Source of the DNA: an uncultured Alphaproteobacteria bacterium
Lineage (GTDB): Bacteria; Pseudomonadota; Alphaproteobacteria; VGEJ01
Assembly (NCBI GenBank): GCA_913041535.1
Contig: CAJWJK010000003.1
Location: 90,953 to 154,952, forward strand
DNA: 64,000 nucleotides
Reading direction: 5' to 3'
Shown: positions 9,149 to 63,999 of the stretch, in pieces
How positions within the stretch are numbered: position 1 is the stretch's first letter
Layout: every line of letters starts with the position of its first letter
Program-made: the position numbers and the translations under genes
The notes under the pieces: model-generated
Told to the model about the DNA's origin: nothing
Seen by the model: the letters and a program-made list of their open reading frames with translations, nothing else
Database searches by the model: none

Positions 9149-9212
9149 AACTGGTAGATCGCGCGCAGAACTAGTGGTGCTGTCTTGCTCAGCAGTGTGG
9201 CCCGACTGTTAT

Positions 9213-9929: not shown

Positions 9930-9965
9930 CGCGGAAAAATTGGGGAAACATGTTTTGTATTGTTT

Positions 9966-10826: not shown

Positions 10827-11074
10827 TCTTATTCCTATGTGTTCTTCTATTTTAGTGGTCGATTCAGGACTGTTTAGTCTAATTCATCGTACTGGTTGGT
10901 CACGTTCCAGAAGCCGAATAGCTGCAACAATAATGGGAGAATGGAGTTAAAAGCTACCATGTTGCTGCAATTTCTCTGGTTATTGGTTGAAAGTATGTGT
11001 GTGTTAGTTATCTTGGGACAGGGCTACTTGCTATTCTTGATCGCAACAGACATGCTCTATGATTCTCTTCAACC

Positions 11075-12244: not shown

Positions 12245-12288
12245 TCAGAGGTTGTGATGCGAAACAATGTTTTTGGATCCTTGTTCAA

Positions 12289-12828
12289 ATGAGGGCAACC
12301 ATTGTGACAAGTATTGGGGAGGCAATAGAGGGAGAAACAATATCAATTTCCGATGGGGTTGTTATTTGGCGCAAGCGGAGATATCGGTGTGCCTTAGGGG
12401 CCTCCGGCGTTAACAAACAAAAGATTGAGGGTGACGGCGTAACGCCAATTGGGTGCTTTGCGATAAGATATATTTTATATCGAGCTGACCGTATTCCTCT
12501 TCCAAGAACTGGTCTTCCAGTCCAACAATTAGCGGCTGATGATGGATGGTGTGACGATCCCAACGACAAATTTTATAACAAACGAGTCCGGTTGCCTTAC
12601 GTGGGTCGTACGGAGAGGTTGTTCCGTGACGACAATTTATACGATTTAATCGCTGTGCTAGGCTACAACGATGACCCAGTGATTCCAGGAAACGGAAGTG
12701 CGATATTTATGCATATCGCTCAATCAAATTATGCTCCAACGGCTGGATGTATTGCATTAGAACTGTCGGACTTGCTCTCTATCCTAGTTGATTGTGGTTT
12801 AGGGTCTAGGGTGTGTATTGGTAGTTAG
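12289..12828 (+). CDS. L,D-transpeptidase catalytic (YkuD) domain protein, no signal peptide
   Basis: C-terminal GSAIFMHIAQSNYAPTAGCIAL matches the YkuD His/Cys catalytic motif. Confidence 0.55.
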   Translation: MRATIVTSIGEAIEGETISISDGVVIWRKRRYRCALGASGVNKQKIEGDGVTPIGCFAIRYILYRADRIPLPRTGLPVQQLAADDGWCDDPNDKFYNKRVRLPYVGRTERLFRDDNLYDLIAVLGYNDDPVIPGNGSAIFMHIAQSNYAPTAGCIALELSDLLSILVDCGLGSRVCIGS

Positions 12829-46037: not shown

Positions 46038-47059
46038 TTTAGACGTTTACCACCAAGACGGATGCGGGGGTCCAGCACACTAAGAGCTATATCAGATATG
46101 AACATGCCTACCACGGTTAGAAGTGTGAGCATAAAGATCAATGCTCCAGCCAGATATTGGTCTTGCGAACGCAATGCTTGGACAAGTAGCGGGCCAAGCG
46201 TTGGTAAAGAAAGTATCATTGCAATAAGGGCTGAGCCTGAAATGAGTGTTGGAAGCAAGTTTCCGATATCGGCAATAAATGGATTCAAGGAGACTCGTAA
46301 AGGGTATTTGATCAATAGTCGCGTGGCAGGCAGTCCCTTCGCTCGACCGGTTACCACATATTGTTTCTGAAGTTCGTCCAGTAGATTAGCTCGGAGTCTT
46401 CTTATCATACCAGCTGTACCCGAGGTGCCAATAATGACTACGGGTATCCACAAGTGTTCTAGAACTGACAGGAGTTTGTCCCAGGACCATGGTTGATTAA
46501 TGTACTCAGGGGCCATCAAACCACCAATAGAGGTGCCAAAATGGACATTTGCGAAATACATTATGATGAGGGCTAGTAAGAAATTTGGAGTTGCTAATCC
46601 CAAAAACCCAACAAAACTTAAAGTGTGATCACCCCAACTGTACTGATGTGTTGCAGAATATACGCCAATGGGAAAAGCCATGATCCATGTGAACAGCACA
46701 ACGGAAAAGTTCAGTAACACAGTGAAAGCGATGTTTCCGCTAACCACTTCGCTTACCGGGCGGTCAAACTCAAAGGAATGTCCAAGGTTCCCTTGCAATA
46801 GGCCGGAGAATCCATTTGGACCTTCTAAAATACCAATCCAAACACCGTATTGCTCAACAAAAGGTCGATCTAGAGAGTATTCGTGCCGCAAGAACTCAAT
46901 TTGATCAAGAGCAGCAGTATCCCCCTGAGACCGAAGTTCTGAAATTTGATTTGAAAGGTAATCGCCGGGAGGTGCTTGAATTATCAAAAACGTCAGGAAA
47001 CTGATGATCAGAATCGTTGGGATCATGATCAATATTCTGTGTGTAAGGTACGTAAACAT
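46034..47059 (-). CDS. ABC transporter permease, YejB-like
   Basis: 341 aa; six transmembrane helices with the EAA-like loop. Confidence 0.75.
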   Translation of the reverse strand: MFTYLTHRILIMIPTILIISFLTFLIIQAPPGDYLSNQISELRSQGDTAALDQIEFLRHEYSLDRPFVEQYGVWIGILEGPNGFSGLLQGNLGHSFEFDRPVSEVVSGNIAFTVLLNFSVVLFTWIMAFPIGVYSATHQYSWGDHTLSFVGFLGLATPNFLLALIIMYFANVHFGTSIGGLMAPEYINQPWSWDKLLSVLEHLWIPVVIIGTSGTAGMIRRLRANLLDELQKQYVVTGRAKGLPATRLLIKYPLRVSLNPFIADIGNLLPTLISGSALIAMILSLPTLGPLLVQALRSQDQYLAGALIFMLTLLTVVGMFISDIALSVLDPRIRLGGKRLK

Positions 47060-47073
47060 TTCAGTTTCTGAGC

Positions 47074-49002
47074 TCAGGGAGATTCAGACGTTTCGTACCA
47101 GAAGGTATCTGGTCGGTATATTCCAAATTGTGCTCCTGGGTTCCAGTTATAAACCGCGTTACGTGGTAAATTTCGTAAGCTATTATGGACTACAACTGGC
47201 TGCATAATGCCTGATATTATGCCAATCGAGAACACTTGGTCCTTATGAATTTCCAGCATCCTATGCCAAATTGCTTCTCTCTCATCCTTGGTGGGGGTCA
47301 CAAGCCAAGCCTTATGCAGTCTTAAAAGCTCAACTGCAGGTTGCATGTCTGGAGCTTCACCAGAAGCCCCATTCGTTTCATAGTATTGGCCCCATTTGGG
47401 CCATTGGTACGCGTGTTGCCGTGTAGGGGCCAGCTCTTCTGGGCTCATTTCTGGTGTAGGCAGCCCATTTTCGATACCGGACCATATGGAAATCTGAGTT
47501 TCACCGGAAAAGATTCTGTTGCGAAAGACTTCTCGTTGGGAGGGGCGTGTATAGACCTTGATGCCAATTTCTGCCCAGTTATCACGGATCAACTCTAATA
47601 CATCTGTTTGCTCTGTATCCTCGCCAGCAGTCTCGATAATTACTTCGAATGGTCTTCCATCAGGAAGTAGTCGATGGCCGGAGTAATTGCGCTCTTTTAG
47701 CCCCACCTCATCGAGTAGTTCGTTGGCTTTACGCGGATCATACTGTGACCAATCGGTTTGATAGTGGGGCTTAAACAATGGGCTATCCGTTAGGACCGTA
47801 TTATTGCCCTCTACGGCTAGACCAAAATATAGGACTTGATTAATAAGACCTCTATCTATAGCGATCGATAAGGCACGGCGTACGCGGACATCTCGAAATA
47901 CAGTCCTCCACACAGGATCGTTAATGTTCAAGTTAGGGTATAGTGCTAGGTGGGAACCTTTCGCCGTTCGCCATAGAAGCGTAGAATAGTTGTTCCTTTT
48001 CTCGCCTTTCTTGAGAAACGTGTAGTTGTTGAAAAATAGGCTACGGGATTGGAGGTCCACTTCACCAGCACTTGCCTTTCCAGGAATGAGCTTGCTGTCG
48101 GCAATAGTTAATATGAAACGATCAATATATGGCAGTTGGCGGCCATTTTCGTCTATACGGTGATAATACGGGTTACGCTCGCCCACAAAGCGATTAGACT
48201 GGTCTGCAGTCGTGTTACGCCACGGTTGTAGTGTTGGTAAATCAGGATTATCAAATTTGTATAGGTTGTCCATGCGATTATGGAGTGATGCCCAGTTACG
48301 CTTACCTGCTGCTAATGCTCGCTCCGCAAGCCTCTCGGCACTGGCGTATTTTGAGTGAAACAGTTTCATATAATGAGCTGGTCGGTAGATGAATAGTGGT
48401 GCCGCGTGTGCAATCGCTGGCAGGAATAGAGGATTAGGAGCAGACCACGTGTAGCGGATCGTATTGACATCTATAACTTCGAAACGTGGTCGTTTCCCAT
48501 TAACCATCATTTCCTTGGGAGGACCAGAAGGCCGAAGATCTTTGTTTGTTGCGACGTCTTCCCAGTAATAGCGAAAGTCTTCACTCGTAAAAGGATGTCC
48601 GTCAGACCACTTGTGTCCAGGGCGCAGTTTGATGGTAAAGATTCGTCCTTCGTCAACTGTGATTGATTGTGCGATGTCGGGAACTATATCAAATTTAGTA
48701 TTATATCCGACTAATCTAGAGTAACCGTAGACAACAAAAAGCCGCACATCTTTGGCCCTTACGCCCAACATTCGAAGTTCTCCACCATGTTGTCCTGGCG
48801 TCAAACCGTTACCACGAAGTTTTATAACTCTAGGTGTTTCGGGAACTCGTTCGTACACTGGGGGTAGTTCCCCAGCCGCCACCTGTTTGTGGAGCATGGG
48901 TGTCTCAACCCAATCCCCCGCGGCACCATGTGTTGCTGTGGCAATCGTTATCGAAAGTAACGTGAAAATAACCAGCGAATAAAGTGTTTGGCGCGGGTTC
49001 AT
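47074..49002 (-). CDS. ABC transporter substrate-binding protein, family 5 (YejA-like)
   Basis: Signal peptide [26 protein letters not shown] and ~640-aa cluster-C SBP length; start moved to give a 4-nt overlap with the ATPase gene. Confidence 0.75.
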   Translation of the reverse strand: MNPRQTLYSLVIFTLLSITIATATHGAAGDWVETPMLHKQVAAGELPPVYERVPETPRVIKLRGNGLTPGQHGGELRMLGVRAKDVRLFVVYGYSRLVGYNTKFDIVPDIAQSITVDEGRIFTIKLRPGHKWSDGHPFTSEDFRYYWEDVATNKDLRPSGPPKEMMVNGKRPRFEVIDVNTIRYTWSAPNPLFLPAIAHAAPLFIYRPAHYMKLFHSKYASAERLAERALAAGKRNWASLHNRMDNLYKFDNPDLPTLQPWRNTTADQSNRFVGERNPYYHRIDENGRQLPYIDRFILTIADSKLIPGKASAGEVDLQSRSLFFNNYTFLKKGEKRNNYSTLLWRTAKGSHLALYPNLNINDPVWRTVFRDVRVRRALSIAIDRGLINQVLYFGLAVEGNNTVLTDSPLFKPHYQTDWSQYDPRKANELLDEVGLKERNYSGHRLLPDGRPFEVIIETAGEDTEQTDVLELIRDNWAEIGIKVYTRPSQREVFRNRIFSGETQISIWSGIENGLPTPEMSPEELAPTRQHAYQWPKWGQYYETNGASGEAPDMQPAVELLRLHKAWLVTPTKDEREAIWHRMLEIHKDQVFSIGIISGIMQPVVVHNSLRNLPRNAVYNWNPGAQFGIYRPDTFWYETSESP

Positions 49003-50879
49003 GATTCTATTTGTGGTGCCACAGATGTACGTACGAAATGACCCTCGCCAAGATCCAGCATACTTAGTGATTGGGTTCCGTCTATAGTATAGGGTGTAGG
49101 CCAATCGGCTGGGTTAGAGGCTTTGCCCGACATCAATCCGGTAAGATCAAGAGGGTCATCTGGGTCGGGCTTTGGGACGGCCGAAAGAAGTGCACGTGTA
49201 TAGGGGTGAATGGGGTTCTGAAATAATACTTCTCTTGGCGCAAGCTCGACCAAACATCCGGAGCACATGACAGCTATCCGATCGGCAATATAGTCAACTA
49301 CAGCTAGATTGTGTGATATGAAGATATAGGTCAGGGTGAGATTCGTCTGCAGCTCTTTGAGAAGATTTAGGACCTGCGCTTGCACGGACACATCAAGAGC
49401 TGATACTGGTTCATCGCAGATTAATAGTTCTGGCTGGAGTGCAAGAGCTCGGGCAATTCCTATCCGCTGACGTTGACCCCCTGAGAAACTATGGGGATAG
49501 CGTCGTCGATGTCTTACATTGAGGCCCACCAACTCCATTAACTCCGTTACGCGCTGAGCTCGGAAAGTTTCGTCACCTATTTTGTGGATAATCAGGGGTT
49601 CATTAATTATATCAAAAACAGTCATGCGGGGGTTAAGTGAGCTGAATGGGTCTTGGAAGATGTATTGGACACTTCGACGAAAATTCCATAGTTCCTTACC
49701 CTGCAATTTTAGTACGTCGATCATGTGTCCATTATCGTTAAATAGAACCTCGCCTGAATCGGCTGATAAAGCGCGCATTAAGATTTTGCTCGTTGTAGTC
49801 TTGCCACAACCTGACTCGCCCACAAGGCCAAGACAGGAGCCTCGTGGCACTTCAAAGCTAACATTATCTACAGCAATAGTGGCATCGTTGGTCTTTTTGC
49901 TAAAAAAAGAGCGTTTCCGGCCATCGAATGACTTGCTTAAGTTGCGGACGCTCAACAAAGGGCCTGCTTTGATCGCTTCGTTGCTCCAAGGTTTACTTTC
50001 TGTATGTAGGAGCTCTCCTTTACTTTTAATTTCTCGAATTGGTATGAGTCTTTCTTCTGGTTTCATGTTGAACCGAGGGACAGCAGACAATAACGCGGTC
50101 AGATATGGGTGTTGGGGATCGTGAAAAATATCGTGCAAAGAGCCATGCTCCATAACTTTGCCATGATACATAACCACGACTTCATCTGCCATGTTGGCAA
50201 CGACTCCCAGATCATGAGTGATCATCAGAATTGCCATTTGGAGCTCGCGCTGCAAGTCATTCATGAGCTTTAGAATCTGAGCTTGGATCGTCACGTCCAA
50301 TGCAGTTGTTGGTTCATCGGCAATCAAGAGAGCGGGGTTGCAGATTAGAGCCATTGCAATCATTGCTCGTTGGCGCAGCCCGCCCGAAAGCTCAAACGGA
50401 TAAGATTGTAGCGCGCTACGGGGGCTAGGGAAGCCAACTAAACGAAGCATATCTTCTGCGACATCAAGCCCTTTTTTTCGGTTTGCAACACGATGTAAAT
50501 GAAAAGCTTCTGTAATTTGGTTTCCAATAGTATGAAGTGGTGAGAGAGACGTCATCGGCTCTTGGAAGATGATAGAGATGCGCCCACCTCGCAAAGCTTG
50601 CATGTCTTTGCTATCTGGTGGCAGATTGCAGATATCAATTACAGGGCCATCCGTTGTGGGGTCACAGAAATCGATAGTGCCTTCAGCAATATGCGCTACT
50701 TTTGGTAAAATACCCATAATGGCTTGAGATACCACCGATTTTCCCGAGCCAGATTCGCCCACCAGTGCCACTGTTTTTCCCTGTGGAACTCTAAACGAAA
50801 CACCATCTACGGCACGAAGTATGCCATCTGGTAGGTCAAAATGAACTTTTAGGTTGGAAATTAGTAAAACATCAGACAT
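48999..50879 (-). CDS. ABC transporter ATP-binding protein with duplicated ATPase domains (YejF-like)
   Basis: Two Walker A motifs ([16 protein letters not shown]), two LSGG signatures ([16 protein letters not shown]), and two oligopeptide C-terminal extensions. Confidence 0.85.
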
Positions 50880-51376
50880 TAACGTCTCTCCAGGGTGCCA
50901 ATAGGTGCATCTAGCGCGTAAAGATTATCTGTTGTTGTTGAATCCAATACGATACCGCGATTACGCGCTTCACGTGCGGCTGCTAGTGCAATATCTTCAA
51001 AACCCTCTAATGAAGAGTCTAATTTAATTTGCCTTGTTCGTGGGCCCATTAGGCTAAGCTGCATCCATCCGTTCCTTCGATCACGGCGAGTTGTGTAATA
51101 TCGGAGGCGAACTCGCTCGAGTCTACACCAATCAAGCTCGGCACGAAAAAGCCCAGTGCTTTCGACTCCAGAGCTAGTTAACGCCACTGTTGTTATTTGG
51201 CGGAGAACAGTGCGTATAGCAAAGACGGTGAAAAGCAATGCTAAGAATAAAAGAATGTATGCAGTTATTGTAAATATGTCTGTTATGATTAAAGGGCCAG
51301 CCGTTAGTGACAGGCCCACACCAGCGCGAAGATAATCAAGTATCAAAGATTTGATAGGGTATCGGTGTTGAGTCAT
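50879..51376 (-). CDS. hypothetical membrane protein (2 TM + cytosolic domain)
   Basis: 165 aa; translationally coupled on both sides (4-nt and 1-nt overlaps). Confidence 0.4.
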   Translation of the reverse strand: MTQHRYPIKSLILDYLRAGVGLSLTAGPLIITDIFTITAYILLFLALLFTVFAIRTVLRQITTVALTSSGVESTGLFRAELDWCRLERVRLRYYTTRRDRRNGWMQLSLMGPRTRQIKLDSSLEGFEDIALAAAREARNRGIVLDSTTTDNLYALDAPIGTLERR

Positions 51377-52137
51377 GTCTCAACGCTAAAGATTTTGTCT
51401 GGGTGTGGCCAGATAGTGCTTTGTTCGACTGTAAGAACAGTCAGAAGTGAGTCTAAAAACTTCCAACTCGGTTCATCCATTACCAGATGATGTGTAAGCA
51501 GACCAGTTGGCTCGTTCTGGTCAACGATTCCCATTCGCCGATTAGATAAGTGCTGAACAAGGATGTGTACGCATGAATCAATTCCACGAAAATGGGGTTC
51601 TGGTTGCCAATTTAGAATGTCTACATGCACGTTGGTCTGCTGTACGCCCGTCGAAACCTCATTGATCTCTCGCGCGCCAAGAGTTGAGAGGCCGCGTACA
51701 CCTAGAGAATATAAGTGAGGGTATAGGTCGGGATTCATCCGATTCCAGGGAGGGACAAGAACTGGCAACGCAATATTGCCAAACAGAGTATCCATGGTTT
51801 CAGAACTACGTTCAATCTCCGCCAACACTTCGAATGATGGGCGATGTGAACCCCATTCAATTTTGCGTTCTCCGACGGGTGCATAATTCCGATGCAAGAA
51901 TCCATGCGTCGCTACTCTAGTTTCCGGATAAATTGATAGGTATTCAGTTAGGCGTGGGTCCGCTAGTTTTGGAATAGCAGCCAGGCATGGCGCAATATTG
52001 TGTCGCGTGACTAGATCAAAAAGGCGGTCAAGCGCAGCGGTTGGTGTCTGCACATCATCGTCACGCAACCACATGCTAGGTTGTCGGCCAACCCGTTTCC
52101 ACGCGTCAAGTTCTTGAACCAGGGCGGACCAACTCAT
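51373..52137 (-). CDS. divergent polysaccharide deacetylase (NodB-like) family protein
   Basis: WLRDDD (motif 1-like) and VATHGFLHRNY (HxxxH motif 2). Confidence 0.4.
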   Translation of the reverse strand: MSWSALVQELDAWKRVGRQPSMWLRDDDVQTPTAALDRLFDLVTRHNIAPCLAAIPKLADPRLTEYLSIYPETRVATHGFLHRNYAPVGERKIEWGSHRPSFEVLAEIERSSETMDTLFGNIALPVLVPPWNRMNPDLYPHLYSLGVRGLSTLGAREINEVSTGVQQTNVHVDILNWQPEPHFRGIDSCVHILVQHLSNRRMGIVDQNEPTGLLTHHLVMDEPSWKFLDSLLTVLTVEQSTIWPHPDKIFSVET

Positions 52138-53291
52138 TTGGGAGCACACTCCGCCCAGTCCTGAACCAACGATACGGTGGTTGCGAGCCCTGAAGTATTT
52201 AAACTGAAAGCGCAATTAGGAGTAGCGTCCATTGCATCTCGTATAGCTGATGCGAGAGATGTGGGGTTGAGGCTTGATTCTGGGACCATTTTCACAAACC
52301 CACGTTTAGCAAGTCGCGCCGTGCGGATTGTTTGTTCAGTTTCCGTTCCCTGCGAGAAAGGAACAATTACGCAACGAGCTTTGGAAACGAGAGCCTCACA
52401 CGTAGTGTTGTAGCCACCTTGACTAATTGAGAGGGCACAATGGTTTAGCAATTTTGGAAAGTCAGTACGGGCACGTTCAACAATTAGGTTTTCGTCGGAT
52501 GATTTCTGCAGAGCCTGAAAGGAGCTTTCAGACACCCCTGTTCCGACCAATACCCGCCAGAGATTGTCTTTAAGAACTGTCGATTTTCGCGCTAAAATGG
52601 CTGTTTCAAGTAGACTCAGCCCCACAGCACCGCCCCCAGCGGAAACAATTACTTCGCCTTGTGCGTGGTGGGTTTTTTCTGCCGCAGCTTGTGTCGGATC
52701 AACTGTGTACCCTGTGTAGACAAGTTGGCTCGCTATTTTATCGGCATTTACAAAGGTTTCATTAAAGGTGATGAATTTGGGATCGCCGTGGATAAGCACA
52801 TAGTCGAAGTATGATTTTATAAGTTCTACAGTTTCGTTGTTACGAATAGGGGTGCGACTGCCGCTTAGAATATCACGGACTGAAGATACGACGATAGTCC
52901 GGTGTCCACTGGATTTCACCAAATCCAATAGTGGAAGTAATTCAAACTTCATTTGACGGCGCCCAAATGGGAAAAGTTCAAGGATTACAACATCAGGCTT
53001 ATGGTTTTTCCAAACCTCCAGGAGGTGGTTGCATCTTGATCTGCGCCACGAATCATTAACTGGCTGGTTATTCATATCCACTAGAGTCGTGAAATTGTGA
53101 TCAATGGTTCGAACTGGAGATAATTGCACGAAACGGCTTGACCCAAGGTCAAGGTGGGGTAATGGCTCGCCTCCCGAAACAAGAATAACATCAAGACCGA
53201 CTTTGCTTAAGTTGCGGCTGATTAGGGCAGCCCTGTGTAGATGGCCAATGCCTAATAGGTGTTGAACGTAGAAGAGCACCTTCTTAGCCAT
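52134..53291 (-). CDS. glycosyltransferase, GT1/MurG-like fold (GxGHxxR family)
   Basis: N-terminus LFYVQHLLGIGHLHRAALISRNL; paralogous to the GT at 56367..57620. Confidence 0.55.
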   Translation of the reverse strand: MAKKVLFYVQHLLGIGHLHRAALISRNLSKVGLDVILVSGGEPLPHLDLGSSRFVQLSPVRTIDHNFTTLVDMNNQPVNDSWRRSRCNHLLEVWKNHKPDVVILELFPFGRRQMKFELLPLLDLVKSSGHRTIVVSSVRDILSGSRTPIRNNETVELIKSYFDYVLIHGDPKFITFNETFVNADKIASQLVYTGYTVDPTQAAAEKTHHAQGEVIVSAGGGAVGLSLLETAILARKSTVLKDNLWRVLVGTGVSESSFQALQKSSDENLIVERARTDFPKLLNHCALSISQGGYNTTCEALVSKARCVIVPFSQGTETEQTIRTARLAKRGFVKMVPESSLNPTSLASAIRDAMDATPNCAFSLNTSGLATTVSLVQDWAECAPK

Positions 53292-53918
53292 TTAGTCTTC
53301 ACTATCTTCAGAGTTGTAGGGATGAGCTCTGGCAGTCAGCAAGGGTACATTTAGACACTCTATCTGTGGGTGGCCGTCGGTGTTTAGAGCGAATAGGTGG
53401 AGTGAGTGCCAATCTAGTTTGAAAGGGGGGGCACCGGTAAGGTCCCAGTTTAAAGCAAGACTAAGTAATGCACGGATTACTCCTTTATGTGTTATGGCTA
53501 GAGTCGTTTCTCGTGCGGCTGCAACTTCTTTCAAGAAAGGTCTTAAGCGATCCTGAACTTCACGTGGACTCTCTCCTTCAGGGGGTTTTAGGTCGAGGCC
53601 TCGTTCCTCAGCTGCAACGAACTCTGTTCCTAGTTCCTGTCGGAGGTTTGCTATGGTTTCCCCTTCCCACAGCCCCCAGTCCATTTCTATAAGACGTATA
53701 TCAGTTTCGAATGAACAAACGTTGAGACAACGAGCAGTCTCAACAGCTCGGACAAGGGGGCTTGTCCTACAACGGACGCCAGAAAAGGTATTCGGAAGCT
53801 GCAATTTAGATAATTCCTGGCGAGCATCACTAGTAATGGAAACATCGGCTCTACCTTGTAGCCGTCTTTGAATGTTCCAATCGGTTTGGCCATGGCGGAA
53901 AAGGGCTAGTGTTGTCAT
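53292..53918 (-). CDS. histidine phosphatase family protein (phosphoglycerate-mutase-like)
   Basis: LFRHGQTDWN catalytic RHG motif. Confidence 0.75.
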   Translation of the reverse strand: MTTLALFRHGQTDWNIQRRLQGRADVSITSDARQELSKLQLPNTFSGVRCRTSPLVRAVETARCLNVCSFETDIRLIEMDWGLWEGETIANLRQELGTEFVAAEERGLDLKPPEGESPREVQDRLRPFLKEVAAARETTLAITHKGVIRALLSLALNWDLTGAPPFKLDWHSLHLFALNTDGHPQIECLNVPLLTARAHPYNSEDSED

Positions 53919-55078
53919 GGTTGGGGCTTTCGAGAAAAGGCACGCACTGTACTCAAAATACGATGCAGTCCCTGAGCTGCATTGCGGATCCCTCGCTCTG
54001 TGTGCACAAAGTGAGCACCTTGGTTTCCCATGCTTTCACGTCGTTTCTTATCTTTGAGAAGTTGCAACATTAAGTTCGCAAAACCCTCGATGTCTCCTTC
54101 GGGCGATAGGAGGCCGCTTTCATGGTCTTGGACTACATCAGGCACACCGCGGACGCGAGCGCTGACTATAGGGAGACCGGCTGCTTGTGCCTCAAGAAAG
54201 GATAAACCGTAGGCCTCGTTAACGGCTGGCCACACATAAATATCGCAGGCCGCGTAGATCAATGCCAGGTCTTCCTGTGGTAGTTTGCCGAGAAAGATTA
54301 TACGTTGATCAGGGAATTCTGAGAACGCCTCCTCAACACTCGTTCGAGCTTCCCCATCTCCAACTATGAGATGTTGCCAGTCTTCATCCAGCATTTTTCT
54401 GAGTGCCGAGGCAAGAAGCTGATATGAGGCAAGTTTGTCCCCATATCGCAGCATTCCAACCGATAACAGCCACGGCTTGTTTAATGAACATCGAAATTTT
54501 TCGTTCAAAGTCCTGCGGGCCTTCACGCGCTGTTTCCTTGTCTCTGTGAAGGGCGCGGTATCGATAAAAGGGGGAAGGTAATGGACGTGATCGCCACAAA
54601 TATTTTGATTTCGTAGAGACTGCAGGTCATGTCGGGTTAGACAGATAATAGCATCAGCTATTGTTATCGCTTTCTGTGTAGCTTCGTGACCAATTATCCA
54701 CGGGGTCGATGCACGTTTTGATGCTAGTGATGCTTCTGCAATAACGTATGGTATACCCAACTTTTGGCTTAACCGAGGACCAAGCCAATCCGGCGCGCGA
54801 TAATAGACGTGATATGTCAGCCATAATTCTGGCCTTTGATTTGGATGAAGTGATGAAAAATGTTCTTCTAGAAGAATTGCTTCTAGCTCCGCGGCTTGGC
54901 AGATTTTTTCTTGCTTGGAACCATTCGCAGAACGGTCATAGCTTCTGAATTCAGAGACAACATTAACTTCATGCCCAATAGAGTTCAGTGCGCCGATCAG
55001 CAATCGTGCCATTTGGCGATCGCCAGAGGGCGTGGGGTGGTATGGGGATTTAAGCGGCGCGTAGAAAACGATGCGCAT
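53915..55078 (-). CDS. glycosyltransferase family 4
   Basis: GT4 C-terminal EX7E-type region (…EAYGLSFLEAQAAGLPIV…). Confidence 0.75.
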   Translation of the reverse strand: MRIVFYAPLKSPYHPTPSGDRQMARLLIGALNSIGHEVNVVSEFRSYDRSANGSKQEKICQAAELEAILLEEHFSSLHPNQRPELWLTYHVYYRAPDWLGPRLSQKLGIPYVIAEASLASKRASTPWIIGHEATQKAITIADAIICLTRHDLQSLRNQNICGDHVHYLPPFIDTAPFTETRKQRVKARRTLNEKFRCSLNKPWLLSVGMLRYGDKLASYQLLASALRKMLDEDWQHLIVGDGEARTSVEEAFSEFPDQRIIFLGKLPQEDLALIYAACDIYVWPAVNEAYGLSFLEAQAAGLPIVSARVRGVPDVVQDHESGLLSPEGDIEGFANLMLQLLKDKKRRESMGNQGAHFVHTERGIRNAAQGLHRILSTVRAFSRKPQP

Positions 55079-55104
55079 GTCTGAGATAAGACCTAAGAGC
55101 TACA

Positions 55105-56361
55105 CTATGTTGTGATGCCTATAGAGGCTGTATTATGTCTAGGCAACCCAAATAGTTTAGCGATACCGTCAATTTTTTCATCCATGTGGAATTGCGCTCG
55201 AATTAGCTGTTCTCCTGCTCGTCCCATGTCTAGCCGTAGTTGCGGTTCTAGCATTAGGCGTGTCAGCGCTTGGTGCAGTGCCAGAGGGTTATTTGGAGGA
55301 ACTAATAGCCCATTAATGCCATCTTCTATCAGTTCTGGTATTGCGCCCGCAGTTGTTGCTACGCATGGAACAGACTGACTTTGCGCTTCAACTAGGACGT
55401 TTGGCAGCCCATCACGGTCTCCGTCGGCACCAATGCAGCTGGCTAATACAAATATATCTGCATCACGGTAGGCAGCTAGCACTGCATCGTGTGCAAGTGG
55501 TCCTCGCCAATCAATCTGTTTGCTAATGCCCAGGGAATGCGCCTGGTGTTTGAGCTGTTTGTCGAGAGGGCCGGCACCTATATGCACCAGCCGCCAGTGT
55601 AAGGTCTTGGGAATCTTTGCTAGTGCATCTAGTAGTATCGAATGTCCCTTTTTTTCCACTGTTCTCCCGATTGAAAGCAAAATTAGAGGATCGTTCCGGC
55701 TGCCGTGCTTTCTGGCTTTTGGAAGATGCGGGTTTGTCGAGAAGTATGAGAGGTCTATTCCGTGATAGTTGAGGTGTACACTTTCCGAAGATCCTAGACT
55801 CTTAAGGTGGGTATGTATGGATTGGTTGCAGGTCGACAACCAAGAGCACGACGCAATCTTTTCCAGTTTCTCCCAGACGGGAATTGTCCATACATCTTTA
55901 GCATGTGCCGAACAGCTCCAAGGCAACTCATTAAGTATGCTCGCATAGCGGGTCACTGATGCTGGAGTATGAAGAAAGTGAGCATGAAGCTGATCAACAT
56001 TTGAATCTAGTTCATGAGCTAGTATTAGAGCTTGACCAAAACGCCGAAGACGGCTTGAGGTAAAATCCCGCCATAAGTCACGCAGCCAGGCTCTCTGTGC
56101 TGTTTTGTACGTAGTACGATTGTGAAGAGCAGCCCAGGCTCGGACTAAGCGCAGAGGTTCTTTATGAAGATATTCGGGTAGATAGTAGATAGGGGCCTTA
56201 ATATCGCTATGAATCATGTGAGTGTATTGGTCAGTTGGTTGGCGCAGTGAATATATGCTGATGAAAAGTCCACGGCGCTCAAGCGCTCGTATTTCCTGTG
56301 CTATAAATGTTTCTGACAAGCGGGGGTAGCCTTTTAGGACAAAGGCAACGTGGCGACTCAT
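55105..56361 (-). CDS. glycosyltransferase family 4 (WcaL/colanic-acid-type)
   Basis: N-terminus VLKGYPRLSETFIAQEI is typical of WcaL-like GT4 enzymes; the C-terminus carries GLPNVLVEAQSQSVPCV. Confidence 0.7.
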   Translation of the reverse strand: MSRHVAFVLKGYPRLSETFIAQEIRALERRGLFISIYSLRQPTDQYTHMIHSDIKAPIYYLPEYLHKEPLRLVRAWAALHNRTTYKTAQRAWLRDLWRDFTSSRLRRFGQALILAHELDSNVDQLHAHFLHTPASVTRYASILNELPWSCSAHAKDVWTIPVWEKLEKIASCSWLSTCNQSIHTHLKSLGSSESVHLNYHGIDLSYFSTNPHLPKARKHGSRNDPLILLSIGRTVEKKGHSILLDALAKIPKTLHWRLVHIGAGPLDKQLKHQAHSLGISKQIDWRGPLAHDAVLAAYRDADIFVLASCIGADGDRDGLPNVLVEAQSQSVPCVATTAGAIPELIEDGINGLLVPPNNPLALHQALTRLMLEPQLRLDMGRAGEQLIRAQFHMDEKIDGIAKLFGLPRHNTASIGITT

Positions 56362-56366
56362 CTCAG

Positions 56367-57620
56367 TTATGCATGTTGGCGGTTCACGCGTAGATCAGAT
56401 TGAACGTTGGCGTGTTGACCAAGCCACGGTGAGGCTAGACGATTGACATTTGTTAAACCTTCGAGCAAACCCGGAACCACCACTTCCGAGGGTTTCCGTT
56501 GTTGTGGAAGCGCTCGGAGAGCGCTAATCATGGCTTCTACGGGCCGGCTTCCATCGTCTACTAGCATTTGAACTAAGCCTAGTTCTTGAGCTCGAGATGC
56601 CCGAATGTATTGTTCTAGCCGGGGCTTAGTTCGGGGCACAATTATTGCCTTTTTATCCAAAGATAAGATTTCGCAGAAGGTGTTGTATCCGCCCATTGCT
56701 ACGATGCCTGCAGCATTTGCTTCCAGGTTTTCAATATGAGCATCAAACGTAATTGCTTGTACTCTAGGAAGTCTCTCAGCGCGAACTAGAAATTCTTTCT
56801 GCAGCTCAGGCTGCATGAAGGGTCCTAAAACCATCAGAGCCGGATAAGGTAGTAGGGATTCTCTTTCATATGCTCGGAGCACCCAATCAATCAATTCAGC
56901 TCCGTCTCCACCACCCCCAGTTGTAACCAGCAGATATGGGCTCTGTGTCACAGGAGGTGGAGGATGGGCAACAACCGGTTTGCTTATTCTTCTCGGCAGG
57001 TAGCCCGTGTACACGATCTTAGACTTAACAATTTCTGGCAGATCGATCCCAGACAGTGGGTTGCAGATTTGAGGTAATCCATATACCCATATCTCATCGT
57101 ACAGGTCACACAAGCTCGGTATCACATTTTTGCGCGCCCATTCTGGTGCTAGAAGTGCTGGTTCGTCGAGGATATCACGTAGGCCGAGCACAAGACGACA
57201 TCCCCTTTTCTGAAGCATAGGCAAGGCATTCCTAACTTCACCACGTAGGCCGAGTGGCTCTTTATCTACAATGAATATGTCCGGATCAAATATCTTAGCC
57301 GTGTGGTGGATAATGGACGATCGAATCGACAAGGTTTCTTCAACGCCCATGTGCAGATTTAAAGGAGTGTATTCTCCATTTCGAAGTTTAATAACACCCG
57401 GAATCCGAACAAAATCTACACGCACACGAAAGTCAAAGCTGCCGATTATGGGTGAACCGGACAGAATCAGAACAGAAAGATTTTTATTTTGTTCTACCAG
57501 GTCGTGGGCAATGGTCAAACAACGGCGAAGGTGGCCAAGCCCAAAGGTATCATGACTGTATATGAGAACGCGGGGGTCTCGGCGTGGTTCTAGACTGGTA
57601 TTTTCAACCGCTTGCAACAT
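56367..57620 (-). CDS. glycosyltransferase, GT1/MurG-like fold (GxGHxxR family)
   Basis: IYSHDTFGLGHLRRCLTIAHDL; paralog of the GT at 52134..53291. Confidence 0.55.
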   Translation of the reverse strand: MLQAVENTSLEPRRDPRVLIYSHDTFGLGHLRRCLTIAHDLVEQNKNLSVLILSGSPIIGSFDFRVRVDFVRIPGVIKLRNGEYTPLNLHMGVEETLSIRSSIIHHTAKIFDPDIFIVDKEPLGLRGEVRNALPMLQKRGCRLVLGLRDILDEPALLAPEWARKNVIPSLCDLYDEIWVYGLPQICNPLSGIDLPEIVKSKIVYTGYLPRRISKPVVAHPPPPVTQSPYLLVTTGGGGDGAELIDWVLRAYERESLLPYPALMVLGPFMQPELQKEFLVRAERLPRVQAITFDAHIENLEANAAGIVAMGGYNTFCEILSLDKKAIIVPRTKPRLEQYIRASRAQELGLVQMLVDDGSRPVEAMISALRALPQQRKPSEVVVPGLLEGLTNVNRLASPWLGQHANVQSDLRVNRQHA

Positions 57621-57763: not shown

Positions 57764-60415
57764 ATGGAATCCAGCATATTTAGATTTGTACTGCGTCACA
57801 GTTTTCGCCAGCAGATTATGCTCACTTTAATGGCGGCAGCTTCTTTTCCGTTTCTTTACGCGTTTTATGAAGTGCCGAAGGCTATAGTGAATGATGCTAT
57901 CCAGGGTGGGACCACCTTTCCTGTGGAGATATTTGGCGTTGAACTTGGCCAGTTGGCATACTTGCTAGTGCTCTGTGCGCTTTTCTTATTACTCGTAGTT
58001 GTAAATCAATCATTTAAGTACTCTGTGAACGTATATAGAGGTCTAACTGGGGAGCGTATGCTTCGTCGGTTACGTTATGAGCTGTACTCACGTGTGCTGC
58101 GCTTTCCTCTACCCACTTTTCGAAAGATGTCACAGGGTGAGATCATTCCAATGATTACGGCTGAAGTAGAACCGCTAGGTGGTTTTATCGGTGATGCATT
58201 TTCTTTGCCCGCATTCCAGGGGGGGACTCTTTTCGTAATCCTTGCTTTCTTGTTTATTCAGGATCCCCTCATGGCTGGGGCAGCTGTCTCTCTGTATCCC
58301 CTACAGGTTTATGTCATTCCGAAATTACAAAGGCGCGTTAATCGATTAGGTAAGGAGCGAGTACGTTTGGTAAGACGACTATCGGACCGCATAGGGGAGA
58401 CTGTGCAAGGCGTGCCAGAAATTCGTGTTCATGACACCTCAAACTTTGCCCTGGCTCATTTTTCTCATCAATTGGGTTTAATTTTTGGCGTCCGTTATGC
58501 AATTTACCGACAAAAGTTCTTTATTAAGTTTCTCAACAATTTTATCCAGCAATTGGGGCCGTTTTTCTTTTATTCTATTGGTGGCTACCTGACTATTACG
58601 GGAAGTCTTGAGATCGGCACATTGATTGCTGCTATTGCCGCGCATAAGGATCTTGCGTCTCCTTGGAAGGAACTTTTACGCTACTACCAAATGAAAGAGG
58701 ATGCTCGGATTAAGTATGAGAATGTAGTGAGTCAGTTCGCTCCCCCTGGCATACTTGATGAGAGGTCTCAGATTGACGATTCGGATATTTCCACAAAGTT
58801 GCAAGGTGAATTAAACACGGCGAATTTGACTCTAACTGATGATCAAGAAACAAGTGTGGTTGATGGGGTGTCTTTCCGTTTTAGCCTTGATCAAAACGTT
58901 GCAATAGTGGGTGTAAATGGATCTGGTAAAGATGAGCTTACTCTACTGCTAGCCCGATTGCTGGATCCGAGTGCTGGATCTATTTCCGTTAACGGCAATG
59001 ACCTTTCTGGCATGTCTGAGACAGTGACTGGCGGGCGGATCTCTTACGTGGGCCCTCAGGGTTTTATTTTTGCTACAACTTTGGGTGAAAATCTATTTTT
59101 TGGTTTAAAGCATGTTCCGTTAATTGCTCCAGACTATGATTCTGATCAGACGATAAAAAGAGAACGCGAGGTTGCTGAGGCAGAACGTTCAGGAAACAAT
59201 AGCTTTGATATACATGCGGACTGGATCGACTATAAAGCTGCTGGCGTTGGAGACTTGGTTGCATTGCGGCAGGAAGCACTGCGGGTTCTTAAGCTTGTAG
59301 ATCTTGGGCCTGACATCTACGACCTCGGATTGAGGGGGACTATCGACCCAGATTCGCATCCCAAGGTAGCTCAGAGTATCTTAAAGGCTCGACGTGCTTT
59401 ACGCGAGCGCGTGGCCAAAGACCCCAATATGAGCTCTCTCGTGGAGACGTTTGATAGAGAAACCTATAACACCAACGCAACTGTCGGTGAGAATCTTCTT
59501 TTCGGAAATCCCGTGGGTGCAGACTTTGCGATGGATAGTCTAGCAGAGGATGAATATGTGCTTTCTGTGCTAGACCAAGCGGGATTAAAAGACACCTTGT
59601 TGTCCATTGGATACCAAGTGGCTTCTACCATGGTAGAACTGTTTGCTGACCTACCTGCTGATCACGAGTTTTTTCAGCAATTTAGTTTTATCAGTTCAGA
59701 GGATTTGCCTGAATTTCAAGGTCTTCTAGCTCGCGTCGATCGGAGCCAACTTAATTCAGTTGAGGCTGAAGATCGAATCCGATTAATGTCTCTTCCTTTT
59801 AAACTCATCACTGCGCGCCACCGTTTGGATCTAATTGATGAAGACGTTCAGGCGAAGATATTGGATGCCCGTGAAATTTTTGCTTCTAGTCTTCCCGATG
59901 AGCTTAAAGACTCTGTAGAGTTCTACGATGACGACCGATACAATAGTAAGGCAAACCTTCAAGATAATATTCTCTTTGGCAAAGTTGTATACGGAGAAGC
60001 ACACGCATCTGATAAGGTTGGGGAGTTAATCGCCGAAGTAATTAGGGAACTGGATTTGGAAGATACAGTGGGCCTTGTGGCGCTGGACTATGATGTTGGA
60101 ATCGGGGGGTCTCGTCTTTCAGGTGCCCAGAGGCAGAAACTGGCCATTGCTCGTGCAGTGCTTAAGGCGCCTGATATCTTGATTCTTTCAGAAGCAACTG
60201 CATCGCTTGATGCTGCAGCTCAATTGAGGCTCTCTCCGGCACTTATGCAAGAGTTTGGCAATAGGTGTCTAATATGGTCCCTCAATAACCCAGCACTTGC
60301 CGAAAACTTTGATCATATACTGGTTATGCATAATGGGAGAGTAGTGGAGCAGGGTTCTTATTCGGATCTAAATAAGGACAATACTCAGTTTAAGCAGTTG
60401 TTGGCAGCCGTATAG
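57764..60415 (+). CDS. atypical ABC exporter-like protein: type-I exporter TMD fused to a degenerate, expanded nucleotide-binding domain
   Basis: N-terminal ~330 aa is an ABC_membrane-type six-TM domain. The NBD has Walker A GVNGSGKDE (Ser/Thr replaced by Asp), signature LSGAQ, Walker B ILILSEATASLD (Asp replaced by Ser), and H-loop His replaced by Ser (CLIWSLNN). About 420 aa separate Walker A from the signature and contain three copies of a T(L/V)GENLxFG-like helical-subdomain segment. Confidence 0.7.
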   Translation: MESSIFRFVLRHSFRQQIMLTLMAAASFPFLYAFYEVPKAIVNDAIQGGTTFPVEIFGVELGQLAYLLVLCALFLLLVVVNQSFKYSVNVYRGLTGERMLRRLRYELYSRVLRFPLPTFRKMSQGEIIPMITAEVEPLGGFIGDAFSLPAFQGGTLFVILAFLFIQDPLMAGAAVSLYPLQVYVIPKLQRRVNRLGKERVRLVRRLSDRIGETVQGVPEIRVHDTSNFALAHFSHQLGLIFGVRYAIYRQKFFIKFLNNFIQQLGPFFFYSIGGYLTITGSLEIGTLIAAIAAHKDLASPWKELLRYYQMKEDARIKYENVVSQFAPPGILDERSQIDDSDISTKLQGELNTANLTLTDDQETSVVDGVSFRFSLDQNVAIVGVNGSGKDELTLLLARLLDPSAGSISVNGNDLSGMSETVTGGRISYVGPQGFIFATTLGENLFFGLKHVPLIAPDYDSDQTIKREREVAEAERSGNNSFDIHADWIDYKAAGVGDLVALRQEALRVLKLVDLGPDIYDLGLRGTIDPDSHPKVAQSILKARRALRERVAKDPNMSSLVETFDRETYNTNATVGENLLFGNPVGADFAMDSLAEDEYVLSVLDQAGLKDTLLSIGYQVASTMVELFADLPADHEFFQQFSFISSEDLPEFQGLLARVDRSQLNSVEAEDRIRLMSLPFKLITARHRLDLIDEDVQAKILDAREIFASSLPDELKDSVEFYDDDRYNSKANLQDNILFGKVVYGEAHASDKVGELIAEVIRELDLEDTVGLVALDYDVGIGGSRLSGAQRQKLAIARAVLKAPDILILSEATASLDAAAQLRLSPALMQEFGNRCLIWSLNNPALAENFDHILVMHNGRVVEQGSYSDLNKDNTQFKQLLAAV

Positions 60416-60434: not shown

Positions 60435-60890
60435 GTGAGCCTTAACGAAGAAGTAGATTTATTACGGCGGGTTCCGCTTTTCAGTAATATCGAGCCCTCC
60501 AAATTAAAGTTGCTGGCATTTACTAGTGAGAGATTAACTTTCCGTGCTGGCCAGAGTTTGTGTGTACAGGGAGAGATTGGAGATGCCGCGTATGTAATTA
60601 TTGAAGGTCAGTGTGATGTCACTATAGATACGCCGAACGGTTCTCTTACACTTGCCACTGTTGGCCAAGACGACTTTGTTGGTGAAATAGCTATTCTATG
60701 TGACGTTCCCAGAACGGCGACCGTGACTGCAACAGACGAGGTGACGGTACTAAAAATATCCAAAGATCTATTTCTTCGTATGATTAGTGAATTTCCACAA
60801 ATGGGAGTGGAGGTAATGCGTGAATTGGCTGCGCGTCTCGAACGAACCACTATTCAGTTGAGAGAAGCGCGTATTGCTGCCTCCACCTGA
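60435..60890 (+). CDS. stand-alone cyclic-nucleotide-binding (CAP effector) domain protein
   Basis: LRRVPLFSNIEP...FVGEIAIL...PRTATVTATDEVTVL is a canonical cNMP-binding fold. It has no HTH or other output domain and lies 19 nt downstream of the ABC-like gene. Confidence 0.75.
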   Translation: MSLNEEVDLLRRVPLFSNIEPSKLKLLAFTSERLTFRAGQSLCVQGEIGDAAYVIIEGQCDVTIDTPNGSLTLATVGQDDFVGEIAILCDVPRTATVTATDEVTVLKISKDLFLRMISEFPQMGVEVMRELAARLERTTIQLREARIAAST

Positions 60891-60908: not shown

Positions 60909-61418
60909 TTGGTCATGAGTCGCTTAGATAGCTTCATCCGTCGGGTGCTGGCGCAGCGTGACTGTCTAAGTGCGGCAGCGACGATGATTGATAATCTCCC
61001 GGGTCCTATTCTGGAATTGGGTTTGGGAAATGGTCGAACATATGACCATTTACGCGAATGCCTTCCGGATAGAGAAATATTTGTCTTTGATCGTCAGGTT
61101 GCTGCTCATCCTAAATGTATTCCCGATGAAAAACATATGATTATTGGTGATATTAGAAGGACACTTCCTGGTATTCTTGCTAAGATTGGTGCTCCGGCAG
61201 TTCTCACGCATTGCGATATTGGGACAGGTGACAAAAATGCATCCCTGGAGCTGGCAGAATGGCTTGGGGGAGCTTTAAAGCCTTTGCTTGCACCGGGCGC
61301 TATAGTTGTTTCAGACCAGAAGATATTAGTTCCGGGCTGGATTCCACTACCGCTTCCGAGTGGTGTTCCCAATGACCGCTATTTTATGGCACGGGTAGAA
61401 ATTACAAAAGTGGCATGA
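60909..61418 (+). CDS. small putative SAM-dependent methyltransferase-like protein
   Basis: ILELGLGNGRTYDHL resembles SAM motif I; 169 aa; weak assignment. Confidence 0.35.
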   Translation: MVMSRLDSFIRRVLAQRDCLSAAATMIDNLPGPILELGLGNGRTYDHLRECLPDREIFVFDRQVAAHPKCIPDEKHMIIGDIRRTLPGILAKIGAPAVLTHCDIGTGDKNASLELAEWLGGALKPLLAPGAIVVSDQKILVPGWIPLPLPSGVPNDRYFMARVEITKVA

Positions 61419-62426: not shown

Positions 62427-63092
62427 CTACTTCCGCAACAGGTTCTCGTTTTGGGAGTCGTTGTACACAAAAAGTTTGGGATCTAAAGGGACGTTGGTTT
62501 CAGTTTGTGATAGGGTAATTTCAGTCGTTAACCCCTGTGAGTCAGTTATGATCCACTGCCTTAATCTTGTCGGTGACTGATCAAAGGTGAGTGTAAGGGA
62601 CCCTTGTTCTTCGTCATCGCGCTCGTGCAGCGTAAGCCACATGAGACCACCTTCTATCCGTAGAGTCGCCGCGACGGATTCCGAACGGAAGTCAATATTA
62701 TCTTGCGTGAGGATTGATAGAGGCGTTGAAGACATGGGAATACGTTCAAGCTGACCCAGCTCTCTGTCCTCAAACACGATCCAAAAGCTGTCACCAACAA
62801 CGAGTAATGGTGTTGGCGAGTCATACTCAAATCGAAAACGTCCAGGACGACGAAGATAGAATAAGCCCTGAGACACTGACCCATCAGGTGAAACCTGGTT
62901 AAATCGAGCACGTATTGTTTCTATCTTGGCAAGGTAAGACTCGATGCGCTCAATATGGACATCTTCTGGACTGGCTTTTGACTGGGTAGGGTATATATCT
63001 AGTGTGCAAAAAATTCCAATAATGAGGATTCCCCATAAAGGGCATCTATTTATCCATTTAAGATGCCAAATGCGCGTCACGCAAAACCTCAC
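62427..63092 (-). CDS. lolA: outer-membrane lipoprotein carrier protein LolA
   Basis: Signal peptide followed by a LolA-fold length and pattern; conserved ftsK-lolA adjacency. Confidence 0.6.
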
Positions 63093-63999
63093 GTTTACCG
63101 CTATTGCTGGCGGGGCTAACGATTCCTTCGAGCTCCATCTTTTCGATCATTCTTGCGGCGCGGTTATAGCCGATTTGTAGGTGTCGTTGAATAAAGCTAG
63201 TTGAGGCTCTACGTTCTCGGCAGACCAAGGCAATCGCTTGTTCATAAAGCTCATCAGTTAAAGATTCATTCCCAAAGCCCAGACTTATTTCGTCTGGCTC
63301 TTCGGTGATATCCTCAAGATAGTCAGGTGTACCTTGTTGCTTAAGGAAATTAACCACGGTATCTACTTCTGCATCACTGACGAAGGGGCCATGTACTCTG
63401 GTAATACGTCCACCATTTGCCATGTAAAGCATATCGCCCGCACCTAGAAGTTGTTCAGCTCCTTGTTCCCCTAGTATTGTTCGACTATCAATTCGTGACG
63501 TTACCTGGAAACTAACACGGGTTGGAAAATTAGCCTTTATTGTTCCAGTGATTACATCCACAGAGGGTCTCTGGGTGGCCATTAGAAGATGAATCCCAGC
63601 GGCTCGCGCCATTTGAGAGAGCCTTTGTACGGCGTTTTCAATATCTTTTCCTGCCAATAGCATCAAGTCTGCCATTTCATCCACCACCACAACGATTGAT
63701 GGAAGAGGAGTTAGCTCTAGTGGCTGGTCTTCAAACACTGGCTCGCCTGTTTCAGAGTCAAAGCCAGTCTGAACTGTTCTTTTAATTATTTGTCCTTTAG
63801 CAGCTGCGTCCTCCAGTTTTTTGTTGTAACTAGCGATATTACGAACACCAAGCTTAGATAATGCTTGGTATCGGTTTTCCATTTCACGCACTGTCCACTT
63901 CAATGCAACAACCGCTTTTCTAGGGTTTGTTACAACTGGGGCCAGAAGATGTGGAATACCATCATAAGCTGAAAGTTCCAGCATCTTAGGGTCAATCAT
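63058..63999 (-). CDS. ftsK: DNA translocase FtsK, C-terminal motor and gamma domain (5' part lies beyond the window)
   Basis: Walker B / arginine-finger region (…[12 protein letters not shown]…) and a C-terminal winged-helix gamma domain; the ORF runs off the window edge. Confidence 0.85.

Follow-up and report, generated by a model that had tools for sequence, protein, structure and literature searches.

What can the fold of an ATP-binding cassette (ABC) exporter still do when the residues that hydrolyse ATP have been lost? This question is raised by a gene at positions 57764..60415 (+) of the stretch of DNA analysed here, 64,000 nucleotides of a contig from an uncultured alphaproteobacterium (CAJWJK010000003.1; the whole stretch is referred to as the window). 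The open reading frame (ORF) is uninterrupted, and its 883 codons translate into a half-transporter of exporter fold, as judged by Pfam, Foldseek and AlphaFold2 (AF2), with a nucleotide-binding domain (NBD) that is both split and degenerate. We use the name ABCx for this product and for its family. The degeneracy of the nucleotide site runs through the family, the NBD carries a segment present in three successive copies, and a cyclic-nucleotide-binding (CNB) protein is the only partner common to all ABCx clades. We tentatively propose that ABCx is a translocator or gate controlled by a cyclic nucleotide.

The membrane part of the protein is conventional, as the original prediction had described it. 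The transmembrane domain (TMD, residues 1-330, 57764..58753, +) matches the Pfam model ABC_membrane over residues 66-291 with 66.6 bits against a gathering score of 28, and consists of six long helices in the AF2 model. Foldseek comparison of the model returned exporter folds (P-gp, PCAT1, TmrAB and TM287/288) with a probability of 1.0 and E-values down to 4e-20. The ABC_tran model is also matched well above its cut-off (71.9 bits against 25), in two stretches separated by about 300 residues, confirming an ABC-type ATPase fold interrupted by an insert. The best stretch, residues 367-465, spans profile positions 2-80 of 137, and the remaining half of the domain was located at about residues 773-882 by alignment with ABCB proteins in the PDB and with NCBIfam exporter models. 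The N-terminal part of the NBD (residues 345-447, 58796..59104, +), aligned by ABC_tran and with residues 390-498 of ABCB4, comprises the beta subdomain, Walker A, the Q-loop strand and a first ENLFFG motif. Between this post-Q-loop motif and the signature lies an insert of about 320 residues.

The nucleotide-site motifs of the window protein depart from the canonical ones at nearly every element. Walker A reads GVNGSGKDE (residues 383-391, 58910..58936, +), with Asp at the Ser/Thr position, and its GVNGSGKD fails the pattern GxxGxGK[ST]. Walker B reads ILILSE (residues 805-810), in which Ser replaces the Asp required by the pattern hhhhDE, and is followed by the D-loop SLD (residues 814-816; both within 60176..60211, +). 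The signature is LSGAQ (residues 785-789, 60116..60130, +). These departures, together with the signature, had been predicted from the start and can be read directly from the sequence. The H-loop had been assigned in the wrong register, as a Ser in place of the canonical His; alignment with ABCB4 places Asn841 at this position (60284..60286, +). By the same alignment the canonical Q-loop Gln corresponds to P431, the adjoining Q432 not being conserved, and the A-loop aromatic residue (Tyr) corresponds to L357. The Walker A Lys (K389) and the catalytic Glu (E810) are retained. In a canonical NBD about 100 residues separate Walker A from the signature. In ABCx this distance is 402 residues (G383 to L785), so that the abnormal length claimed originally holds, and the value then given, about 420, does not.

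Degeneracy is a property of the whole family and not of this single sequence, which extends what had been predicted. Motifs were counted in 86 relatives of the window protein and in 69 sequences spanning the whole family, 155 in all. Not one of the 155 carries all six canonical residues (K, S/T, Q, D, E and H) together; one carries five, and most carry between none and three. At the Walker A Ser/Thr position 71 of the 86 relatives have Glu or Asp and only 7 have Ser or Thr. The preceding Lys is kept as K in 60 and replaced by R in 23 of them, and is found in only 30 of the 69 diverse representatives, in which the glycine-rich loop is frequently broken as well. The Walker B Asp position holds mainly Asn or Ser (N39, S28, D7 and A6 among the relatives), with Asp in 17/69 diverse representatives, and the catalytic Glu is kept in 59/86 relatives versus 22/69 representatives. 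His occupies the H-loop position in 45 relatives (Q12 and N9 being the next counts) and in only five of the 69 representatives. The A-loop position is Leu in 62/86, and Gln occurs at one or other of the two candidate Q-loop columns in 31/86 and at neither in 55/86. Conservation is much stronger in the signature and the D-loop, with L785 of the signature in 85/86, Q789 in 82/86 and D816 of the D-loop in 82/86 relatives; LSGAQ and SLD are conserved in the window clade and variable in distant clades. Judged from these motifs, the residues for ATP hydrolysis have been lost across the family, and ABCx would not be expected to hydrolyse ATP.

Conservation is distributed very differently outside the ATPase site. 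The TMD is the best-conserved region of ABCx (mean majority identity 0.84, versus 0.65-0.75 elsewhere) and the motifs of the insert are nearly identical among relatives, whereas the ATPase residues vary, which points to selection acting on the membrane domain and the insert and not on the ATPase site.

The insert itself is built from repeats of a known piece of the NBD. The original prediction had noted three successive copies of the segment following the Q-loop, with the signature kept only after the last, and this was confirmed. Motifs of the form [ED]N[LIV]xFG occur at residues 442, 576 and 734, and LSGxQ follows the third copy only. Composition predicts 0.005 per protein, and none of 200,000 shuffled sequences gave three. 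Repeat R1 (residues 415-533, 59006..59362, +) contains the Q-loop strand, TLGENLFFG and helices ending in GLRGTID; R2 (residues 534-692, 59363..59839, +) contains a TVGENLLFG unit and a unique helical extension; and R3 (residues 693-783, 59840..60112, +) contains a NLQDNILFG unit that runs into the signature. The R2 extension, about 75 residues (617-692), carries ELFADLPxDHEFF and the motif RHRL (residues 685-688, 59816-59827, +), which is identical in 85 of the 86 relatives, as are ENLLFG of R2 in 73 and DNILFG of R3 in 78.

These units were compared with hhalign using non-overlapping segments of the 86-sequence alignment (R1 400-533, R2 534-692 and R3 693-805). R2 and R3 are related with a probability of 98% (E=1e-13 over 79 columns). 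R1 and R2 align in two collinear blocks (E=2.7e-4 and 5.6e-4), and R1 and R3 in one block with E=9e-5 (415-447 against 708-739) and a second, collinear one with E=0.02, while control comparisons with TMD or C-terminal segments gave E>=0.1. On its N-terminal side R1 continues the first canonical half of the NBD, and R3 leads on into the second, C-terminal one; several NCBIfam models, including those of CydD and of energy-coupling factor (ECF) ATPases, begin their C-terminal match at ABCx residues 729-735. Neither R2 alone nor residues 446-533 alone matched any NCBIfam model at E<=1, and R2 is recognisable only via R3. Judged by these comparisons, the ABCx NBD is enlarged by two extra tandem copies of a unit made up of the Q-loop strand, the TxxENxxFG helix and the first helices of the helical subdomain.

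Structure prediction agrees with this arrangement. With the 86-sequence alignment as input, AF2 modelled ABCx with a predicted local distance difference test (pLDDT) score of 85.6 and a predicted TM-score (pTM) of 0.79, most blocks of the NBD and the insert scoring above 90, and the insert modelled alone reached pLDDT 93 and pTM 0.83. R2 and R3 share one order of elements in the model, namely a long helix, a short helix, a strand, the ENLxFG helix, a strand and further helices. The insert is thus predicted with confidence to be a folded module. No such insert is present in any of the solved exporters compared, and a search of the insert profile against all PDB sequences yielded no counterpart, only matches at chance level (E>=0.3). 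One of these, a stretch resembling the LFxxxPxxxxYFxxF of cytoglobin, was taken as a coincidence.

Directly downstream of ABCx, 19 nt after its stop codon, lies a gene for a stand-alone CNB protein of 151 residues (60435..60890, +). It matches PF00027 with 75.6 bits against a cut-off of 27.5, and its phosphate-binding cassette, GEIAIL..PRTAT, conforms to the canonical pattern GE[LI]A...R[ST]A; GEIAILCDVPRTAT of this protein is conserved at >=90% across 78 orthologs. Synteny was counted in 80 loci, the counts for genes of the neighbouring cluster given further below being limited by contig ends. A CNB gene follows ABCx on the same strand in 78 of the 80, at a distance of 18-130 bp in 76. In distant clades the two are joined in one polypeptide: the CNB domain is fused to the C-terminus of ABCx in 32 of the 150 best insert representatives and in 19 of the 68 full-length ones, and one fusion protein used as a query recovered at least 120 clusters (90% identity) with ABC_membrane, ABC_tran and cNMP_binding domains, from Xanthomonadales/Lysobacterales and Rhodospirillaceae. 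Such gene fusion indicates joint action of ABCx and the CNB protein, and the latter is predicted to be the functional partner of ABCx. The suggestion that the two genes be examined jointly proved decisive.

A recurrent sub-clade extends the fusion further, to ABCx-CNB-GGDEF proteins of 1175-1204 residues (more than 25 clusters; examples are P0213, P0224, P0422, P0427 and P0431-P0437, and locus L083 at 9001-12549). The GGDEF matches that were checked are weak or partial (E=3.9e-4 and 3e-8). These fusions hint at cross-talk between cyclic AMP (cAMP) or cyclic GMP (cGMP) and cyclic di-GMP at the membrane. In the window the CNB gene is followed by a gene encoding a Methyltransf_17 protein (60909..61418, +; PF12692, E=1.6e-55), which comes third after ABCx and CNB in 58/80 loci, possibly as part of one operon with them.

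The family is large and widely distributed. The 120 best database homologs are 874-926 residues long and share 58-96% identity over their full length, and a profile of distant members brought in further homologs with identities of 46-59%, among them proteins of several Azospirillum species and of Kiloniellales and Arenicellales. Altogether more than 200 homologs (46-96% identity) share the length and split architecture of ABCx, and when one genome per species was scanned, full-length relatives turned up in at least 594 species genomes. The hosts are mainly Rhodospirillales-like Alphaproteobacteria (Sneathiella, Oceanibacterium, Thalassobaculum, Nisaea, Zavarzinia, Stellaceae, Geminicoccaceae and Azospirillaceae). 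When the insert (residues 450-772) was searched exhaustively against 1.84 billion representatives, 1012 clusters (at 50% identity) were recovered at E<=1e-3 and 304 at E<=1e-30, and its position within an ABC-type protein was constant. We propose that this insert of about 320 residues between Q-loop and signature, marked by ENLLFG, RHRL and DNxLFG, defines the ABCx family together with a CNB domain that is either adjacent or fused.

Database entries for these proteins bear generic labels such as 'ABC transporter transmembrane domain-containing protein', 'multidrug transporter', 'ABC transporter ATP-binding protein' and 'HepA'. No NCBIfam model comes near its cut-off on ABCx: the best is MsbA (TIGR02203, 189 against 602 bits), and HepA (NF045513, 167.5 against 725) and ChvA-NdvA (NF010178, 138 against 733) also stay below theirs. 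The equivalogs known in NCBIfam (MsbA, HepA, CydDC, ChvA, and the bacteriocin and type I secretion system exporters) were therefore rejected, all being far below cut-off, and the best of these sub-threshold family matches are to lipid and glycan exporters (MsbA and HepA). No paper on the family was found in the literature, including by the accessions of Azospirillum orthologs. The fold and superfamily of ABCx are already known, but no model, structure or paper found covers its combination of features, in line with the initial impression that the architecture is not that of a described family. What is new is that degeneracy of both sites, triplication of the Q-loop/helical-subdomain unit and a CNB partner, fused in some clades, occur together in a family so widely distributed, tractable Azospirillum strains included.

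A conserved block of seven genes is transcribed divergently from ABCx (50879..57620, -). By Pfam and NCBIfam matches it encodes a GT28-like glycosyltransferase, two GT4 glycosyltransferases, a His_Phos_1 phosphatase, a second GT28-like protein, and two unannotated proteins of 280 and 165 residues. In the order just given, the block genes were found in 76, 72, 64, 59, 65, 56 and 44 of the 80 loci. The same gene order is found in Oceanibacterium and is kept over most of the 80 alphaproteobacterial loci, and an Arenicellales member retains GT4-GT4-His_Phos together with a CNB gene nearby. Within the block, neither a priming transferase gene nor one of Wzx/Wzy type was recognised. The unannotated 165-residue product is a membrane protein with two transmembrane helices. 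The 280-residue protein (51373-52215, -) carries WLRDDDV...HGFLH, reminiscent of carbohydrate deacetylases or DUF2334-type enzymes; a deacetylase assignment was not adopted, the sole support in Pfam being DUF2334 at E=0.1. In Sneathiella and relatives (L015-L019, L021 and L023) the first GT28-like gene is missing and the first GT4 gene lies directly upstream of ABCx, indicating that this transferase is dispensable for the module. One distant fused locus sits among genes of lipid and lipopolysaccharide metabolism, encoding a YegS-like kinase, a GT4 protein, DUF374 and LpxK.

Two further neighbours were recorded. Adjoining the glycosyltransferase block is a YejABEF/Gsi-like peptide ABC importer (44862-50879, -) composed of a fused double ATPase, an SBP5 protein and two permeases, whose ATPase is found near the block in 54/80 loci and whose substrate-binding protein in 39/80. 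At the window end (62427-63999, -), a gene for LolA and one for an FtsK/SpoIIIE-type translocase, which runs off the end so that its C-terminal part alone is covered, represent ordinary housekeeping synteny unrelated to ABCx.

How might such a protein work? On the reading that we prefer, which we hold tentatively and judge to fall just short of probable, ABCx is a non-hydrolytic ABC-fold translocator or gate run by a cyclic nucleotide, with a cargo supplied in this clade by the divergent cluster. Two ABCx chains would pair in the usual dimer. In exporters, association and dissociation of the NBDs flips the TMDs between inward- and outward-facing states; in ABCx this switch of the pseudo-NBDs would be set by cAMP or cGMP, bound by CNB domains that are attached C-terminally or docked, with no cycle of ATP hydrolysis, and the enlarged, highly conserved helical module would provide the platform for docking and transmission. 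Because such a device has no energy source, it would gate downhill movement only, such as the export or flipping of a cytoplasmic product, and in the window clade this cargo is likely to be a glycoconjugate or glycolipid made by the glycosyltransferase/phosphatase cluster. A more specific proposal, in which ABCx and CNB form an ATP-independent facilitator or scramblase for a glycolipid or glycoconjugate, cAMP or cGMP opens or closes the pseudo-NBD dimer and the triplicated module adds docking surfaces that resemble coupling grooves, is conceivable, and we regard it as rather unlikely.

Several observations weigh against a cyclic-nucleotide-run translocator with this cargo, and the rival explanations draw on them. 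The glycosyltransferase cluster is absent at two distant fused loci, which restricts the cargo to the window clade; the CNB partnership is thus family-wide and the glycosyltransferase link particular to the window clade, and the cluster was rejected as defining the function of the whole family. The window clade also retains fairly well the P-loop glycines, K or R, the catalytic Glu (59/86), LSxAQRQKL and the D-loop. In addition, an acid at the Walker A Ser/Thr position is strongly anti-correlated with the Walker B Asp in 154 members, Asp being present in 5/97 members with the Walker A acid versus 19/57 others (92:5 against 38:19; Fisher p=1e-5, a value that ignores phylogeny). The residues concerned in the window protein are K389-D390 (58928-58933) and S809 (60188-60190). 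This covariation looks like compensation around a phosphate or cation site still in use and, taken with the conserved signature and D-loop, suggests a nucleotide site that is constrained and not merely decayed, which may keep a non-hydrolytic binding or structural role. One could thus suppose that the site has been rewired, the acid for Mg having moved from Walker B to Walker A, and that ABCx still binds a nucleoside triphosphate as dimer glue, modulated by the cyclic nucleotide, much as nucleotide in the degenerate site of heterodimeric exporters serves as glue that is hydrolysed slowly or not at all. A rewired site is favoured by the retention of K or R in 86 of the 97 members with the Walker A acid and by the window protein itself, which has K389 and E810 within a clade that largely keeps Q789, D816 and the catalytic Glu. 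Yet the A-loop aromatic residue is lost, most relatives have Gln at neither Q-loop column, the H-loop is variable, fewer than half of the diverse representatives have the Walker A Lys and their glycine-rich loop is often disrupted; the covariation may, moreover, reflect simple electrostatic packing. We consider a rewired site unlikely.

The GGDEF fusions, for their part, point to signalling and not to transport. ABCx might then be mainly a membrane sensor or signalling scaffold, one that senses a lipid, an envelope cue or glycosyltransferase activity and relays it to CNB and GGDEF domains, a role that would fit the conservation of CNB in all clades beside a clade-specific glycosyltransferase cluster and the dispensability of the catalytic machinery, complete in none of the 155 members. 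However, the CNB protein of the window, at 151 residues, has no output domain, the GGDEF matches are as weak or partial as stated above, the TMD is the most conserved region and has a complete exporter topology, and the neighbouring biosynthetic glycosyltransferase block has no other exporter; we give a sensor the same small likelihood as a rewired site. It is more doubtful still, and in our judgement improbable, that ABCx supplies the degenerate half of a heterodimer, the competent half being encoded elsewhere in the genome. The two genes of known heterodimeric exporters are normally adjacent, and no second exporter-type (ABC_membrane) gene was found in the 64-kb window or within +/-10 kb of the 80 loci, which favours a homodimer; ABCx is altered in what it contributes to a composite site both by Walker A/B and, in part, by the signature, so that such a pair would have at most one good site. 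What speaks for a heterodimer is that, among type I exporters, heterodimers with a single degenerate site are common (PMC7756269). An artefact, be it a frameshift or other sequencing error, an assembly chimera or a decaying pseudogene, has hardly any likelihood: frame errors had been named among the findings that could overturn the prediction, and the ORF is intact, homologs of the same length and domain order number more than 200, full-length relatives occur in hundreds of species and the insert is conserved and confidently folded. A cyclic-nucleotide-gated ABCx is favoured by the partner shared by every clade, the family-wide degeneracy of the site and the strongly conserved TMD and insert, and the proposed cargo by the glycosyltransferase synteny and the sub-threshold matches to lipid and glycan exporters.

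It is instructive to set ABCx beside systems that share one or another of its features. ABC exporters are the textbook case of ATP-powered alternating access, and we know of degenerate exporter sites only as one of two sites. The closest matches in sequence and structure, MsbA, Sav1866, TM287/288, PCAT1 and HepA, have the same layout as ABCx, a six-helix ABC_membrane domain followed by a C-terminal NBD, and the position of ABCx near genes of glycan or lipid biosynthesis recalls the genomic context of MsbA, HepA and PglK. ABCx differs from type I exporters in its degenerate Walker A, Walker B and A-, Q- and H-loops, in the insert between Q-loop and signature and in its obligate CNB partner. A review of degenerate sites (PMC7756269) contains no discussion of exporters with two of them. 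A family of this kind would offer a natural system for learning what the exporter fold can do without hydrolysis and how NBD closure is driven or controlled by another ligand, to which ABCx adds the triplicated helical subdomain and a cyclic-nucleotide sensor hard-wired to the NBD. Its recognition also corrects the systematic mis-annotation of these proteins as 'multidrug transporter' or 'ABC transporter ATP-binding protein', and draws attention to an uncharacterised glycosyltransferase/phosphatase cluster that is conserved and probably controlled by cyclic nucleotides, with a distribution that takes in plant-associated Azospirillum and numerous Alphaproteobacteria from marine and soil habitats.

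Regulation of an NBD by a small ligand has precedents among importers. In MetN (C2 domain), ModC and MalK a small ligand-binding C-terminal domain on the NBD controls NBD closure, and in the fused ABCx clades the CNB domain stands exactly there, at the NBD C-terminus; the regulator in ABCx is, however, a CNB beta-roll with another ligand, and its partner is of exporter type with a non-catalytic NBD. CNB domains are also coupled to type I exporters in cyanobacterial and other CNB-associated systems (the bacteriocin-type systems TIGR03896/TIGR03797; HetC-like PCATs, PMC10986499). The corresponding models score far below their cut-offs here, TIGR03797 reaching 136.7 against 709.4 on ABCx and TIGR03896 reaching 31.9 against 161 on the CNB protein. 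The NBDs of these exporters are not known to depart from the canonical form or to carry a triplicated insert.

Large insertions are also known from SMC/Rad50/RecN and UvrA, at the topological point used in ABCx, where they part the half of the ATPase fold with Walker A and the Q-loop from the half with the signature and Walker B. Those insertions are coiled coils or DNA-binding domains and not helical-subdomain repeats, and the proteins are soluble, catalytically active and functionally unrelated to ABCx. SbmA/BacA illustrates that an ABC-exporter-like membrane domain can work without ATP hydrolysis, driven by protons; it lacks any NBD, unlike ABCx. The re-use of the ABC fold as a channel or channel regulator in CFTR and SUR (ABCC) offers an analogy, no homology between ABCx and CFTR/SUR having been found beyond the ABC core. 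Unlike ABCx, CFTR and SUR are full-length eukaryotic proteins in which both sites bind ATP and one remains competent, and the sequences of their regulatory inserts are either disordered or unrelated. If the gating proposed here is true, ABCx-CNB would be a bacterial and fully hydrolysis-free counterpart of the solution reached by CFTR, an ancient pump fold turned into a ligand-gated facilitator.

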